Assembly (NCBI GenBank): GCA_037308085.1
Contig: CP147779.1
Coordinates: forward strand, 1,696,001 to 1,760,000
Source of the DNA: Promethearchaeati archaeon SRVP18_Atabeyarchaeia-1
GTDB taxonomy: Archaea > Asgardarchaeota > Atabeyarchaeia > Atabeyarchaeales > Atabeyarchaeaceae
Direction of reading: 5' to 3'
Length of the DNA stretch: 64,000 nt
In this document: positions 1-26,530 of the stretch, one piece after another
Position numbering within the stretch: position 1 is the first letter of the stretch
Layout: each line of letters begins with the position of its first letter
The notes under the pieces: model-generated
What the model was told of the DNA's origin: nothing
The model's input: only the letters and a program-made list of their open reading frames with translations
Databases searched by the model: none
Program-made: the position numbers and the translations under genes

Positions 1-186
1 GGTCTATTGACGGCGCCTCCGACTCTATGACCATGCTGCTCTCTATCAAGCGCTTCTAACGGTAGTTGCGACAATGAACATCCATCCAAGGGTCTTGGAG
101 TCCGGGACGCAAAAGCCATAAATATCGGAACCAATATAGACAAACAAACAATTCAAAAAGAGAGAAATCAAAGGGGAGAACAACAA

Positions 187-546
187 ATGGCAGACATCTA
201 CACTTTCCTGATGAGCCTACTCCTAAACCCGATGTTTCTAATCGTGTTCTTGGTCGCTATTATTCTAATAAGTCTAGTGCTGTCCACCTTGTTCCTTATG
301 CTAGGTCTCGGCGCAGTTGGAGGCAAGAACAGGGAATTCGGCTCAGTCTTCGTGACTGCCCTAATTGGTTCCGTTCTCGGATGGATACCATGCGTCGGCT
401 GCATACTCTACTGGTACATGATAAAGACACGCCATGAGACTAGCTGGGGAGGCGCCATAGCCGCTTGGCTGCTTGCGGGACTAATACCATTGGCCATTGC
501 CATCGCCATATTCTGGCTTGTCCTGTTGCCATTCGTCGCACTCTAG
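187..546 (+). CDS. Hypothetical integral membrane protein (about 4 TM)
   Basis: 119-aa hydrophobic ORF with GGGGAG upstream and a terminator-like hairpin downstream. Confidence 0.75.
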   Translation: MADIYTFLMSLLLNPMFLIVFLVAIILISLVLSTLFLMLGLGAVGGKNREFGSVFVTALIGSVLGWIPCVGCILYWYMIKTRHETSWGGAIAAWLLAGLIPLAIAIAIFWLVLLPFVAL

Positions 547-1600: not shown

Positions 1601-1660
1601 TGCCGTTAGCTTCTCGGCCGTATGGCGGCTTTATTAGCCGAAGTAGCCCCTTTTTCGGGT

Positions 1661-2824
1661 ATGCAAGCTGTCAAAGCAGTCAAGCAGAGCTACACGCCAC
1701 CAACCGAACTACTCAACCTCCTAGACGAGTTTAGAAGAATGGTGAATGACTGCATACGGATTGGCTTAGCTGAAAATGCCACTTCGATGAAGGCGCTCTC
1801 AAAGAAGGCATACCATGAACTCGCAGGATGCGACGCGCCAACCTACTACCGCCTGACGGCGATCAGCAAAGCCACCGGAATCCTCCGGAACTACAGGCAC
1901 GCGCTGAGAAAACAGCCCAAGGCGAAGAGACCGCACGCGGCTAAGCTCATGCTCACCGACTGCTACGGCTTCAGGATAATCAGCGGCGAGCTCAGACTCC
2001 CCATAAGGGCAAAAGAGTACGTATACATCCCGCTGAACGCCTACACACTGCGGTCCATTGAGGGCTGGACCGTGCGTTCAGTCTGCCTGACCACCTCCGC
2101 CGTATCCCTGACTTTCTCCAGGGAGGTTGATCAGGTTGAGCCTGCGGGGCTAATCGGGATAGACCGCAACCTCGACAACGTAACCATTGCGTCCTCAGAT
2201 GGAGATGCGAAGAGGTATGACCTCTCGAGGGTAACTGAGATCAAGGAGAACTGCAGGCAGGCTAAGCGGGGCTTCAAGCGGAACGATTGCCGCGTCAGGG
2301 GGCAGCTCTACTCCAAGTATGGGCGAATCCAGAGGAGCAAGGTAAATTGGGTACTGCACAACGCTTCTGCTGATATAGTGAAGCGGGCGAAGGAGAAGCG
2401 GTTCGGCATAGTCATGGAGGACATTAGGGGCATCCGAAAACTCTACAGGAGGGGAAACTGGCAGGGCAGGGACTACAGAGCAAGGATGAACGGCTGGAGC
2501 TACGCCGAGCTGCAACGGCAAATAGAGTATAAGGCACGCTGGGAAGGTATCCCAGTGTTTTATGTTAACCCATCCAAGACTTCCTCACTCTGCGCGACAT
2601 GTGGTTCACCAATAACCGAATGCGCGGGGAGGAAGGTCTACTGTCCAAGATGCTGCAGCAGGCTCGTGGACAGGGATGAGAACGCGGCTTTGAACATCGT
2701 CGGCGCAGGGCTGCGGTTCGGCCTGAAGGGAGTGGCAGGTGAAGCGGTGAAGGGGAACCCTGAACGCGGAAAGGTAATCCCCGGAGCAGATGCCACCCAG
2801 CTAACTCATCACCCGAAGAGTTAA
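1661..2824 (+). CDS. tnpB: TnpB RNA-guided endonuclease, catalytic residues intact (ORF track start 1622; ATG 1661 preferred)
   Basis: RuvC-I GIDRN, RuvC-II VMEDI, zinc ribbon CATC...CPRC, RuvC-III DRDENAALNI; TATA-like TTTATTA about 30 nt before 1661. Confidence 0.93.
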   Translation: MQAVKAVKQSYTPPTELLNLLDEFRRMVNDCIRIGLAENATSMKALSKKAYHELAGCDAPTYYRLTAISKATGILRNYRHALRKQPKAKRPHAAKLMLTDCYGFRIISGELRLPIRAKEYVYIPLNAYTLRSIEGWTVRSVCLTTSAVSLTFSREVDQVEPAGLIGIDRNLDNVTIASSDGDAKRYDLSRVTEIKENCRQAKRGFKRNDCRVRGQLYSKYGRIQRSKVNWVLHNASADIVKRAKEKRFGIVMEDIRGIRKLYRRGNWQGRDYRARMNGWSYAELQRQIEYKARWEGIPVFYVNPSKTSSLCATCGSPITECAGRKVYCPRCCSRLVDRDENAALNIVGAGLRFGLKGVAGEAVKGNPERGKVIPGADATQLTHHPKS

Positions 2825-23160: not shown

Positions 23161-23365
23161 CTGCCAATGTTTCTCGGCACAGCTACCTCTAACTAACTAT
23201 ATGCCCGAACGCTTTAAATACAGCCAAAATTGAAGGCAGAAGTAGGCATGGTAGAACGCAGGATCAGCGAAATAGCCACAATAGGTCTCAACTCTGGAAA
23301 TAAGGAAGAAATTGGGCATGTTAGCCTGTGAAGAGCGCCAGACGCCGCCATTTCAGGCAAGTAGG

Positions 23366-23411
23366 TGAACCATTTTAAAGCGCTGGTCTCGAAATCGTTT
23401 AAATTGGTTCA
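23366..23411. promoter_or_regulatory. Inverted-repeat operator/promoter: TGAACCATTTTAAA-N18-TTTAAATTGGTTCA
   Basis: 14-bp arms with one mismatch; the same motif recurs at 25313-25326. Confidence 0.7.
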
Positions 23412-23466
23412 GACACGCGAGGCGATCTGTCTGGAAAAGTCTTAAGAAGGTGAACAAGCAGAGAAG

Positions 23467-23628
23467 ATGCTAGGGAAAACCGGAGGGCAAAGAGGATTGA
23501 ACGCAGGAGAGTTCTTCGTAGAATACAATAGGTTATTGATCTTGGCAGCCGCCCTTACGATAATGCTAATGGCAGCATTGCTCGGTGCACCAGCAGCTGC
23601 AACACCCTTCACTGGTTCGCCAGCCTAG
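23467..23628 (+). CDS. Small secreted or membrane peptide absent from the ORF track (53 aa from ATG 23467; 43 aa from TTG 23497)
   Basis: (MLGKTGGQRG)LNAGEFFVEYNRLLILAAALTIMLMAALLGAPAAATPFTGSPA*; GGAGG/GAGGA before the TTG; downstream hairpins and T-tract. Confidence 0.7.
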   Translation: MLGKTGGQRGLNAGEFFVEYNRLLILAAALTIMLMAALLGAPAAATPFTGSPA

Positions 23629-23671
23629 CAGATTCTCAGATAAACCAAACAAAGCTACCTAAGCAGAATCG

Positions 23672-23728
23672 TAGACGGCCGTCTATTGAGGTTAGGCGCG
23701 CGCTAACCTCCTCCCCTTTTTTTCTTTT
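23672..23728 (+). terminator. Palindrome, hairpin and T-tract after the peptide ORF
   Basis: TAGACGGCCGTCTA (23672-23685), GAGGTTAG...CTAACCTC (23688-23710), TTTTTTTCTTTT. Confidence 0.6.
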
Positions 23729-23754
23729 GCTGGAATTCTCTAAGCTCTTCTTCT

Positions 23755-25251
23755 TCATTGCAGCAACTCATAACGCCTGACAAAATCAAGCTCATCAACA
23801 GAGCAAACCCACTTCTGCTCCACCTCATTCCAGTGGTCGTATAAGGGAGTCAGGGTCTTCCCTCCACTATTCTCAAACCTGTTGGAATAGGTTACGATAT
23901 TAATCTCATTTATTCCTTTCATCATGTAGTTGATCTTCGCCGAATCCTCCAGACTTGACTTAATGAAAATGAGCACACCCTTATCCGTTCTGTAGAGGAA
24001 GTAGAACGGTAAGTAGTTCACAGCATAGTATAGCTCCTCTACCTTGTCGTCGGGACATTCAATAAGGTAGGCGCTCATGTTACTAAGGCCTAATCCCCAG
24101 TAGCTTGCATAGGGGTAGATCATTGGTTGGCCCTCCGGACTTCCATTGCCGTCAATTGACCGCTGCGCGGAGATCAGTCTGTCAATCCTTCTGGTTATCG
24201 TAGGTCTTGATGATTCGTAACCGAACTGCTCTAGCTGCTTTCTGATATCATTATGCGTGGCAAATGGGTTGCTCATAAGAATCGTAGCGATCAAAAAGTC
24301 CATTCTATCAAATCTCTCATGGCTGTCAGAGTAGCGCAGTTCTGTGGCTTTCCTTAGAAGCTCCTTGTTTTCTCTGACAAATTCGAAGAATCCGTACGCC
24401 CACAAGTGAGGGTCGAAGAACCAGCGCTTACCATCGAAGAATTCCAGGTTTGATCCAGTTGAGAAAGACTTGAGTTCGCATATGTTTATGTCCTTGAATA
24501 CTTCGCCTCTGAGATCCATTAAGGTTTGTCTGAATTGACTGAGCTCTTTTCTCTGATTGGGTACGGCAAAGCTTGCCCAACTGCTTCCCTCGTATATGTC
24601 CAGATTCAGATTCAGAGTAAATGGGACGTTGTCAAAGAGCAGCTTTTTCGGATAGTCACTTTTTCCTCTATACTCTCTGAGAAGTGTGAAGAAGGTGATG
24701 TAGTGCCTTAATCTGAATGCCGGGTAATTGAGGTATCCGTAAAACCGTATGAGATCTGACCTTCTCAAAGCATGATAAGCCTGATAGACTGCTTGCGGCG
24801 TCACCCCAAGTTGCTTCGCGATCTCGGCAAATTGCATATTCGGGTACTTCATGAAAGCGTCTAGGTACGTTTTTCGAACTGGGTGGGTCCTCTTTTCTTC
24901 CTCGTAGAGGCAAGATACCAGTGTCCTTCTTACGACCTCAGGGTTAGTTATTCTGTACTTGCGCACGCTGTGCAATCTCGTAACCAGAGCCTCTCTTAGG
25001 TTCCTGCTTGTTGGAGTATTGAATGGATCAAAGTAAGACATTGCCAGCCTTTGCATTATCTGCGGGTTTATCATTATATGTTCTTTCTTGAGGTGGGCGT
25101 TGTCACATCTGGCAAGGTAGATTCTGATTAAGGCGAAGAGAACTTGAAGCTCCTTGTTCTCAACCTCTGGGAAAAGACTGTCGTATAGGTTTAGCTGCTG
25201 CGCTACGTTTTGCAGAAGGATCGAGTCCTCTCGCTGCTCTTCTCTCCCCAT
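23755..25251 (-). CDS. Large transcriptional regulator with two tandem Lrp/AsnC-like (wHTH plus effector domain) units
   Basis: HTH1 PNMQFAEIAKQLGVTPQAVYQAYHAL...LNYPAFRL; HTH2 FDRMDFLIATIL...SRPTITRRIDRL...YWGLGL; each unit ends in a W-containing motif. Confidence 0.75.
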   Translation of the reverse strand: MGREEQREDSILLQNVAQQLNLYDSLFPEVENKELQVLFALIRIYLARCDNAHLKKEHIMINPQIMQRLAMSYFDPFNTPTSRNLREALVTRLHSVRKYRITNPEVVRRTLVSCLYEEEKRTHPVRKTYLDAFMKYPNMQFAEIAKQLGVTPQAVYQAYHALRRSDLIRFYGYLNYPAFRLRHYITFFTLLREYRGKSDYPKKLLFDNVPFTLNLNLDIYEGSSWASFAVPNQRKELSQFRQTLMDLRGEVFKDINICELKSFSTGSNLEFFDGKRWFFDPHLWAYGFFEFVRENKELLRKATELRYSDSHERFDRMDFLIATILMSNPFATHNDIRKQLEQFGYESSRPTITRRIDRLISAQRSIDGNGSPEGQPMIYPYASYWGLGLSNMSAYLIECPDDKVEELYYAVNYLPFYFLYRTDKGVLIFIKSSLEDSAKINYMMKGINEINIVTYSNRFENSGGKTLTPLYDHWNEVEQKWVCSVDELDFVRRYELLQ

Positions 25252-25311
25252 TCAGCTGCCCCATACCCTGTGTCTCGATGAGCAATTTCCATAAGAGATG
25301 GAGTTATCTTC

Positions 25312-25326
25312 GTGAACCAATTTAAA
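25312..25326. promoter_or_regulatory. Third copy of GTGAACCAWTTTAAA, upstream of the regulator gene
   Basis: TGAACCAATTTAAA (25313-25326) is the exact reverse complement of 23398-23411. Confidence 0.65.
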
Positions 25327-25432
25327 TCGATTCCCATCAAATTCTTTTGATAATAACTCAAATTTCATTCTCCTTCAGCGAAATCTCAAGGAGGCAGTCT
25401 TCTGTTCACAAGGAAAGAAGCGTTTTTTGATG

Positions 25433-26530
25433 TCACGGCGAACCGATCATGTGTTGCTTCCAGAAATACCACGGAATTCCTTGAGGCGGGAGCGAGAATC
25501 CGTGCTCCAGCGGGAGGCACATGAAAGTTGTTGGAATCAGCCTGAAGAATCCAGAGGGTTTGAGCGATTTATTCATGTCCTTGTCGTGTTGGCTTAGGGG
25601 GGCCATCTGGAGTGCGCAGCCGCGCTCCTCGCCATCCTGAGCCAATCTCTTGATTAAACACTGCAAGTACCCCTCCCTTTCTGGGCTCTTTAGACTTGGC
25701 GAAGCGAAAATATCGCTGATTACCCATGAATTGAAGACTCTCCCGAAAAACCTCATTTTGTAGATGGATGCATTTGCTCCGCACAGAATCTTGCCAGATT
25801 CCTCGATGAATCGTGCGAGTGGCGAAATAGTTTTCGGCGCCCTGCAGATCATCCAGGCGAGTCGTTCCTTTGAATAGGGATAGAAGAGTGGCATTCCCTG
25901 TAGCGAGCCATTCAGCGCCTCAAGATAAGAGTCAAATTGGCGATCGTTTGCGCACTCGAGCCGTTCTATTCTTGCTTCTCTCTTTAGTCCCCTACATCTT
26001 ATTGAGTTCAGGCCAGAGAACAGCGTGGCTAGCGGGCTGGCAAGATTCACAGGGAACGGTAGCTTCCTAGCTAGGTAACCGACGCTAGCCGTCTTGCCGT
26101 TATAGTAGAAGTACTTGGCATCCCTGAAGCCAAGCCGCCTGTAAATGCCAGCGGCTTCACCCGAAGGGTTAGCGTACAGAAACAGGGCAGAACAGCCAGC
26201 CTTCTTTGACTCCTCAATGGCCATCCTCATGAGCCTTGTGGCAATTCCCTTTCCCCTCCACTTGTGAGAGGTATCCACATCATCGACGATCCCCACGAGG
26301 CGCTTCCTGTCATTGATCAAGGCAGGATGCTTGCAGACTACTAGGGATCCGACAATCTCATGGAGATCTTCGTCCTCCCCCACCAGTATTCCTGAGGGGT
26401 CAAAGTCTGGCATCTGGAGATACATCCACTTCCACTCTTCGACCGTCCGATACGACTGGAAGCACTCGTTGTAAAGCCTGACGACGCCCGTTGCATCTTC
26501 ATGCTTGAAGCTTCTGAAAGTCAGCGTCAT
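25433..26530 (-). CDS. GNAT N-acetyltransferase (tandem GNAT fold)
   Basis: VDTSHKWRGKGIATRLM motif A; IYRRLGF. Confidence 0.85.
   Translation of the reverse strand: MTLTFRSFKHEDATGVVRLYNECFQSYRTVEEWKWMYLQMPDFDPSGILVGEDEDLHEIVGSLVVCKHPALINDRKRLVGIVDDVDTSHKWRGKGIATRLMRMAIEESKKAGCSALFLYANPSGEAAGIYRRLGFRDAKYFYYNGKTASVGYLARKLPFPVNLASPLATLFSGLNSIRCRGLKREARIERLECANDRQFDSYLEALNGSLQGMPLFYPYSKERLAWMICRAPKTISPLARFIEESGKILCGANASIYKMRFFGRVFNSWVISDIFASPSLKSPEREGYLQCLIKRLAQDGEERGCALQMAPLSQHDKDMNKSLKPSGFFRLIPTTFMCLPLEHGFSLPPQGIPWYFWKQHMIGSP

Follow-up and report, generated by a model that had tools for sequence, protein, structure and literature searches.

A candidate double-Lrp regulator, operator and microprotein module in an Asgard archaeon, and its possible reading as a peptide-signalling cassette

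The described systems closest to the locus reported here are of three kinds. In the RRNPP(A) systems (Rap-Phr, PlcR-PapR, NprR-NprX, Rgg-SHP, AimR-AimP) of Bacillota and their phages, a receptor gene lies beside a very short open reading frame (ORF) composed of an export tag and a C-terminal peptide. Archaeal Lrp/AsnC regulators (feast/famine regulatory proteins, FFRP), among them LrpA, FL11, Ptr2, LysM and Ss-LrpB, combine a winged helix-turn-helix (wHTH) with a RAM-type alpha/beta domain. They have sites at or near their own TATA box, for autoregulation, and upstream sites at target promoters. The third kind is the siroheme decarboxylase NirDL/AhbA-AhbB, which serves haem d1 and alternative haem synthesis; no other fused chain of tandem Lrp-like units than NirDL has a solved structure. 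To our knowledge, RRNPP-type signalling is known only from Bacillota and their phages, and no peptide signalling system has been described in archaea. Here we describe a locus in a 64,000-nucleotide stretch of DNA (the window; GenBank CP147779.1, positions 1,696,001 to 1,760,000) from the genome of Promethearchaeati archaeon SRVP18_Atabeyarchaeia-1 (G000; 2,808,651 bp). It holds the gene of a 498-aa tandem Lrp/AsnC-like protein, an unannotated gene for a 43-residue microprotein, and a candidate operator. These very probably form a dedicated module, the two genes being inherited together tail to tail.

The module resembles the RRNPP(A) systems in that the gene of a putative cytoplasmic DNA-binding receptor lies beside a very short ORF with a predicted export tag and a C-terminal peptide, close relatives share the leader and differ in the tail, the proposed circuit is autoregulatory, and oligopeptide-type importers are encoded in the genome. 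It differs from them in its receptor, which has an Lrp-like fold and no Pfam TPR domain and so is not the TPR receptor by which those systems are recognised. It also differs in its Asgard-type archaeal host, its convergent genes and its uncharged, invariant n-region. At best, the module would work like RRNPP(A) without being a member of the RRNPP family. Unlike the archaeal Lrp/AsnC regulators, it has two units fused in one chain, with an N-terminal helical domain and a C-terminal extension added, and what is proposed as its ligand is not a free amino acid but a peptide or a partner protein. Unlike NirDL, it has no pathway context and carries an operator at its own promoter. It can be described as a receptor-plus-propeptide-like cassette that uses another receptor fold and belongs to another domain of life. 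Literature searches returned no paper on archaeal peptide signalling or on a pairing of a double-Lrp protein with a microprotein, and within the literature searched the module is undescribed.

One line of evidence for a module is the linkage of its genes. Ten distinct microproteins were found, and microprotein and regulator are linked on every contig reached from either gene (10/10). About 130 bp downstream of every microprotein gene there is a convergent regulator ortholog, represented by a C-terminal fragment on contigs that end within it. Queries with the microprotein led to contigs L056, L057 and L058 (clusters including P0075 and P0076) and, among Joint Genome Institute (JGI) metagenome contigs, to L072-L075; in loci found in this way the convergent regulator ortholog is 61-66% identical or is present as its C-terminal fragment. 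Queries with the regulator led to microproteins in a genome of the sister genus (G002; L006 1223..1360), whose regulator is 62% identical to the 498-aa protein, and on the metagenome contigs L054 and L055, where genes of 43 and 41 residues had already been called. The regulator query against genome contigs gave no confirmed relative, and the relatives came from a separate genome search. The microprotein is single-copy in G000 and G002, and its family is rare (3 clusters among 5.8 billion proteins). A first-pass annotation of the window had described the small ORF as converging on the regulator, and looked to homologous regulators for similar small ORFs; both expectations are borne out by the ten linked contigs.

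The same annotation regarded the small ORF as a gene missed by the existing annotation. In the first 28-30 codons, ortholog pairs show 0.34-0.80 synonymous against 0.05-0.21 non-synonymous differences per site. Because the non-synonymous differences are well below the synonymous ones, the plus-strand frame is under purifying selection. With ten distinct, regulator-linked microproteins, the small ORF is, on comparative evidence, a real gene. Two starts had been offered, 23467 and 23497. The TTG at 23497 is most likely the start rather than the ATG at 23467, because the orthologs begin at the codon aligned to 23497; in G002 there is no start codon in frame upstream of the ATG at that position, and the ortholog on L058 also uses TTG. 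The likely product of 43 aa is MNAGEFFVEYNR-LLILAAALTIMLMAALLG-APAAATPFTGSPA, which has no match in Pfam or NCBIfam. The ribosome-binding site (RBS) attributed to the gene is present and lies within a conserved block (Table 1). The probable core promoter, GAAAAGTCTTAAGAAG in the window, is a conserved block of the form AAAA-(G/T)-CTTAA/TTTAAT, which every ortholog has at an equal distance upstream. Oligo-T runs terminate transcription in archaea, and such runs follow the gene; a scan for sigma-70/terminator consensus flagged no terminator there, and the proposal that the gene has its own terminator stands on the T run alone. Pairing of the RBS region with RNA from 24127-24149 was considered and dropped, since both transcripts carry the same sense of the shared 9-mer.

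The second line of evidence is the 14-bp motif TGAACCAWTTTAAA, present in three exact copies at 23366-23379 (+), 23398-23411 (-) and 25313-25326 (+). These are the only matches in the whole genome with one mismatch allowed, where by our own arithmetic about 0.04 chance matches are expected (degenerate 14-mer, both strands). The exact copies in G002 are likewise local to the locus. Nine loci share one interval from TG[A/C]ACC to GGT[T/A]CA, exactly 46 bp, with conserved arms of 14 bp and a spacer of 18 bp that varies freely. Where the arms differ they have changed together, to TGCACC/GGTACA in a genome of the same genus (G001, 94% complete) and to TGAACCG/CGGTTCA in L056. The inner TTTAAA is replaced in L072-L075 by TTGAAT, TTTCAA or TTTGAA, and thus the A/T part of the motif is not required as a TATA box. 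The inverted pair and the third copy upstream of the regulator had been noted at first pass, with the reservation that the motif might be a generic TATA context. All three copies are exact, and by both the genome scan and the TTTAAA replacements the motif is no generic TATA context.

A better candidate than the motif for the B recognition element (BRE) and TATA box of the microprotein gene is GAAAAGTCTTAAGAAG. With the core promoter placed there, the operator pair lies about 30 bp upstream of it. Archaeal Lrp-type activators, Ptr2 among them, act from this position, and by analogy the regulator might be an activator at the microprotein promoter. In every case examined, the regulator's own promoter has a half-site, whose place with respect to the TATA box varies: about 22 nt upstream of a separate conserved ATCGATTTAAA box in L058 and L073-L075. 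In other loci it is fused to the TATA box, on its upstream side in G002 and L054 and on the downstream side of the equivalent TATA in G000. The orientation in G000 (25313-25326) is inverted with respect to G002 (L006 3065-3078) and L054 (306-320), and the TTTAAA stays 69-76 nt from the ATG. The half-site has thus shifted with respect to the TATA box in the course of evolution, and for this reason the sign of autoregulation may differ between lineages.

Table 1. Features of the locus and related micro-ORFs (window coordinates, except where a contig is named)
Feature	Position	Strand	Details
Candidate operator, 46-bp inverted repeat	23366..23411	.	arms TGAACCATTTTAAA (23366-23379) and TTTAAATTGGTTCA (23398-23411), 18-bp spacer
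Single candidate half-site at regulator promoter	25313..25326	-	regulator strand reads TTTAAATTGGTTCA; TTTAAA is the probable TATA box, 69 nt before ATG
Probable BRE/TATA core promoter of microprotein gene, GAAAAGTCTTAAGAAG	23434..23449	+	about 45 nt before start codon; promoter role inferred
RBS GGAGGG	23482-23487	+	within 19-nt block conserved just upstream of start
Microprotein gene	23497..23628	+	43 codons and stop, TTG start; ORF frame open from 23467, unannotated
Microprotein parts	residues 1-12; 13-30; 31-35; 36-43		n-region; hydrophobic helix; G-x-P / AxA-type site; tail TPFTGSPA
Probable transcription stop of microprotein gene	23690..23728	+	short hairpin 23690-23708, then T7 run 23717-23723 and T4 run; read from sequence
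Fused tandem Lrp/AsnC-like regulator, 498 aa	23755..25251	-	AlphaFold2 model, Foldseek, family profile, Pfam
Regulator domains	residues 1-123; 124-165; 168-267; 316-360; 378-458		helical N-domain; wHTH1; RAM-like 1; wHTH2; RAM-like 2; then C-terminal extension
Small-GTPase-like gene, 180 aa	22618..23160	-	Atlas fold lead only; divergent from microprotein
Longin-like gene, 152 aa	22069..22527	-	Atlas fold lead only; follows GTPase-like gene
Class B micro-ORFs	L008 1116-1241; L066 1498-1620; L010 1128-1286	-	divergent from paralogous double-Lrp genes, two other families of phylum

The regulator had been read as two HTH plus Lrp/AsnC-like units, and structure prediction agrees. The AlphaFold2 model (mean pLDDT, the predicted local distance difference test, 88; predicted template modelling score, pTM, 0.75) has two units, each a wHTH followed by a beta-alpha-beta-beta-alpha-beta fold, after the 123-residue helical N-domain, with canonical secondary structure at 378-458. 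The best Foldseek match is the fused siroheme decarboxylase NirDL (4ch7), over both units (E 2.7e-7, TM by target 0.56, identity 10-11%), followed by more than 30 Lrp/AsnC chains with probability 1.0 and TM by target of 0.47-0.65. Lrp relatives with L-Ile, Gln and Leu complexes are among the structural matches. The Lrp/AsnC protein PH0061 is matched along residues 5-132, covering the HTH and RAM domains, by a family profile of 53 sequences (E 1.3e-6), which also matches LrpA, PH1519 and others. With Pfam, one HTH_24 lies above cut-off (24.3 bits against 21.9, residues 131-169), NirdL-like_HTH matches weakly (E 0.021) and AsnC_trans_reg has no match. The N-terminal wHTH and the RAM-type domain of Lrp/AsnC proteins are present, but the usual single unit of about 150 aa, which assembles into non-covalent dimers or octamers, is replaced by two fused units in 498 aa. 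The modelled chain is a tandem of Lrp/AsnC-like units and, like NirDL, a variant in architecture.

The regulator family is small, with 72 representatives among 1.84 billion sequences at E <= 1e-3, nearly all of 430-500 residues. It was found in 103 of the 400 genomes searched, with some families of one phylum represented and others not. The nearest clusters in the ESM Atlas are labelled Thorarchaeota, and the Atlas has similar double-Lrp chains from other archaeal phyla. In a tree of 21 rows, with far homologs sampled, the regulators paired with microproteins that carry the EFFVEYNR n-region (class A) form a clade with 100/100 support. Those paired with a second, unrelated class of micro-ORF (class B, described below) fall elsewhere, the deeper order being unresolved. 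Metagenomes of freshwater sediment and of wetland contain the G000 genome. In a metatranscriptome library from wetland, one contig of 249 nt equals window positions 24507-24755, inside the regulator gene, with 0 differences, although DNA carry-over is possible. No RNA contig overlaps the microprotein gene among the assembled contigs, to which the comparison was confined, and nothing is drawn from this absence.

The microprotein is conserved very unevenly along its length. Residues 5-13, EFF[V/I]EYNR[L/I], are nearly invariant among the ten class A sequences. The N-terminal 30 residues are under strong purifying selection, and the tail of 11-15 residues is the fastest-evolving part of the module, with non-synonymous divergence of 0.25-0.47 per site against 0.05-0.21 in the N-terminal part. 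Between L073 and L075, for example, the regulators are 91% identical, the N-terminal parts of the microproteins 89% and the tails 53%. After the residues LLG at the end of the helix, the first column is variable, the second an invariant P, the third A/V, the fourth A/S/L/V/M and the fifth A/G (V once). One variable residue follows and then mostly P. The P, [A/V], x, [A/G] columns hold in 9 of the 10 sequences, the exception being L075, which has an alternative V-L-A site two residues further on. In the alignment these columns follow the classical -3/-1 rule: helix breakers come first, -2 is free and, as at signal peptidase I sites, small or neutral residues occupy -3 and -1 behind the helix-breaking G/P. 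The final 8-10 residues are TPFTGSPA, APGIGTPA, LPTAGSGSPA, TPQGGSPF, TVPGSGSPV, RPEVGAPA, QPYDGGSGPF, QPYAGGSGPF, RPEAGLPY and (LA)YDGGPGPF. What these tails retain is a P at position 2, a central G (G5) and, next to a hydrophobic last residue, a penultimate P; the other positions change freely. Other types of processing were considered and rejected. For a class III (prepilin-type) signal, which requires G/A/S before the hydrophobic stretch, the residue in this place is R and the product would be about 30 residues long; for a PGF-CTERM-like sorting signal in the tails that end in GPF, there is no helix after the motif.

The following mechanism could connect these features. Each regulator molecule would be a covalent pseudo-dimer that places its two winged helices on one 14-bp half-site. 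Two such molecules on the inverted pair, about 30 bp upstream of the microprotein TATA box, would control transcription of the microprotein, and the half-site that overlaps or adjoins the TATA box of the regulator gene would provide autoregulation. From this point on we infer that the microprotein inserts with its N-terminus inside and its C-terminus outside, and that the conserved [A/V]-x-[A/G] site marks where type I signal peptidase then cleaves it, on the C-terminal side. This would free a peptide of 8-10 residues, x-P-x-x-G-x-P-hydrophobic, as the fast-evolving signal of the module. The peptide might return through an oligopeptide-type ATP-binding cassette (ABC) importer of the genome and change DNA binding by the regulator, perhaps with its free C-terminal hydrophobic residue in the Lrp amino-acid site. 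An archaeal signal peptidase I gene is present in the genome, as are six genes for SBP_bac_5 (oligopeptide-type) binding proteins, located elsewhere. A co-fold of the regulator with the whole microprotein scored 0.48 against 0.00 for the best control and lends weak support. Of 80 solved complexes 58 attain the mark used, as do 2 of 110 mismatched pairs; with scores of 0.60 or less, only 7 of the solved complexes attain it, together with both of the mismatched pairs. At least 40% of contacts are common to the runs, partner pLDDT is at least 49, and no interface is reported from them. We put the probability of such an export-and-sense peptide system at roughly 35-40%. A wider proposal would be cell-to-cell or self-sensing signalling in archaea, by a released 8-10-residue peptide with fast-diverging 'pherotype' positions and a fused tandem Lrp-type receptor, functionally convergent with RRNPP and recurring in several Asgard lineages. 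We consider this doubtful.

Several observations weigh against export and sensing. The n-region of the microprotein has a net charge of about 0 (K, E, E, R), and the signal peptides of the genome's own SBP_bac_5 binding proteins have basic n-regions with several K/R. The hydrophobic stretch is 18 residues long (13-30), with fixed positions A18, L20, T21, L24, A26, L28, L29 and G30. Neither feature is that of a Sec signal peptide with its positive n-region and h-region of 7-15 residues, and a long, position-conserved helix of this kind fits better with a retained membrane helix than with a disposable leader. The original suggestion of a peptide that is little more than a signal peptide with an AxA site was therefore partly right: the AxA-type columns are conserved and are followed by a varying, Pro/Gly-rich tail of 8-10 residues, but the leader itself is uncharged, invariant and position-conserved. 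In the G001 genome no microprotein homolog was found at the locus or elsewhere. Its contig L048 (G001:C3) carries, at 1500-2011, a variant 46-bp operator with both arms changed, the GTPase-like neighbour and the 3' end of the regulator gene, within which the contig ends; the 460-bp gap holds only a doubtful 96-aa ORF (1651..1941). Among about 35 paralogous regulators searched within 700 bp, a hydrophobic micro-ORF was found only in G029/G041 and G006. Import of the peptide is possible through the oligopeptide-type importers, none of which is linked to the locus. We know of no description of peptide binding by an Lrp RAM-type domain. Finally, the neighbouring regulator is probably the protein that binds the operator, a conclusion drawn entirely from their co-location and co-inheritance.

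The rival that survives best holds that the microprotein is an uncleaved single-pass membrane protein, N-in and tail-anchor-like, in which the EFFVEYNR N-terminus and the helix are functional and the tail is a loosely constrained external stub. It would be either a membrane partner that tethers or releases the regulator or no more than the chief target under the regulator's control. Residues 1-30 show the strongest purifying selection, the n-region differs from those of local signal peptides in being invariant and uncharged, and the helix, with 18-23 hydrophobic residues, shows small-residue spacing (A18, T21, A26, G30). A chain of 43 residues leaves the ribosome before co-translational targeting, given the length of the tunnel, and this also counts for a membrane protein. 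The weak co-fold signal came from the whole chain and so cannot be assigned to either end of the microprotein, the tail included. On the other hand, the -3/-1 pattern with a free -2, and the invariant G and P at the end of the helix, would be unexpected in a plain anchor, and the tail keeps P2, G5 and the penultimate P while the rest changes. A conserved leader with a varying mature peptide is the pattern of diversifying pheromone systems, such as AgrD and AimP, as well, and thus the conservation pattern does not decide between a cleaved and a retained protein. Class B micro-ORFs share the design of an export tag with a short tail, but not EFFVEYNR. On balance we regard the membrane-protein explanation, in either of its two forms, as a tentative one that is somewhat unlikely.

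Less likely still, the regulator might be an ordinary Lrp-type factor that responds to a small molecule or amino acid, the microprotein being a mere target with no role in sensing and the divergent GTPase-like/longin-like operon perhaps part of the regulon. The fold is Lrp/AsnC-like and solved relatives bind amino acids; G001 has the operator and the regulator 3' end without a microprotein; the GTPase-like gene is always the divergent neighbour; and regulator homologs in another family adjoin a conserved ORF of about 80 aa and not a peptide gene. However, 10 of 10 microprotein genes are linked to a regulator and none is found elsewhere. The operator pair lies 30 bp from the microprotein promoter against about 145 bp from the TATA box of the GTPase-like gene, and this explanation leaves the fast evolution of the tail unaccounted for. 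It is highly improbable that the 498-aa protein is an enzyme like the siroheme decarboxylase NirDL/AhbAB, with another factor binding the motif: NirDL is its best structural match over both units and NirdL-like_HTH a weak Pfam match, but their identity is low (10-11%), the 123-residue N-domain and C-terminal extension are extra, no haem-pathway genes lie nearby, and in every ortholog an operator stands at the protein's own promoter, as for an autoregulated DNA-binding protein.

Class B micro-ORFs, unrelated to class A, combine a hydrophobic core behind a basic n-region with an A|DP site and a Pro-rich tail of 9-13 residues. In G029/G041 (g16 genomes) they read MVKFGRLKIWLLANLWL[I/V]FLL... and end in ADPQDPWP[T/W]G, being 83% identical to each other; the form in G006 ends in ADPPNGDIPVPIDG, with the tail DPPNGDIPVPIDG. 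Classes A and B share a design, an export tag and a short Pro-rich tail, and no sequence, which counts for cleavage and export. A phylum-wide search with a class B profile returned only its three input genomes. No hydrophobic micro-ORF lies near the G000 paralog at C1:2294037-2295380 (33% identical), or near paralogs in G001, G002, G009, G317 and families f6 and f12. The intergenic region of L008 contains repeated ATTTTCCG/CGGAAAAT elements near both promoters. Small ORFs of other kinds accompany some regulator homologs. In L037, L040, L043 and L045, all of one genus, a conserved 40-residue ORF (MQQYKNVGS.DPANIA.KWNGSYWNWSEEEF...) with no hydrophobic stretch lies about 90 nt downstream of a regulator homolog, and in many loci of the family to which this genus belongs, f12, a conserved ORF of about 80 aa lies upstream (MEETQRIIG...EIGAIGSLL...).

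The module is a compact object for testing, consisting of one regulator, one 46-bp operator with known arms and one 43-residue precursor with a predicted octapeptide. Regulator, DNA and peptides can be made synthetically, so that the central claims are testable in vitro although no culture of the organism exists. Should the signalling reading fail, there would still be a conserved archaeal microprotein overlooked by annotation, a first candidate operator for the fused double-Lrp proteins, which are widespread in archaea and uncharacterised, and a link between the double-Lrp family and small-GTPase-like and longin-like genes in Asgard archaea.

The GTPase-like gene is the divergent neighbour in every locus long enough to show it (G001, G002, L056, L073, L074, L075), and has its own conserved TATA-like box at 23213-23222. 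Synteny of the longin-like gene was seen only in L056, as a 145-aa gene at the equivalent place. Neither protein has a Pfam or NCBIfam match, and both genes may belong to the regulon. On the other side, the regulator's immediate upstream neighbour, on its own strand, is the gene of a 365-aa GNAT acetyltransferase (25433-26530, -). A divergent short-chain-dehydrogenase-like gene occupies this position in G002 and L054, and the upstream neighbour thus lies outside the conserved block.

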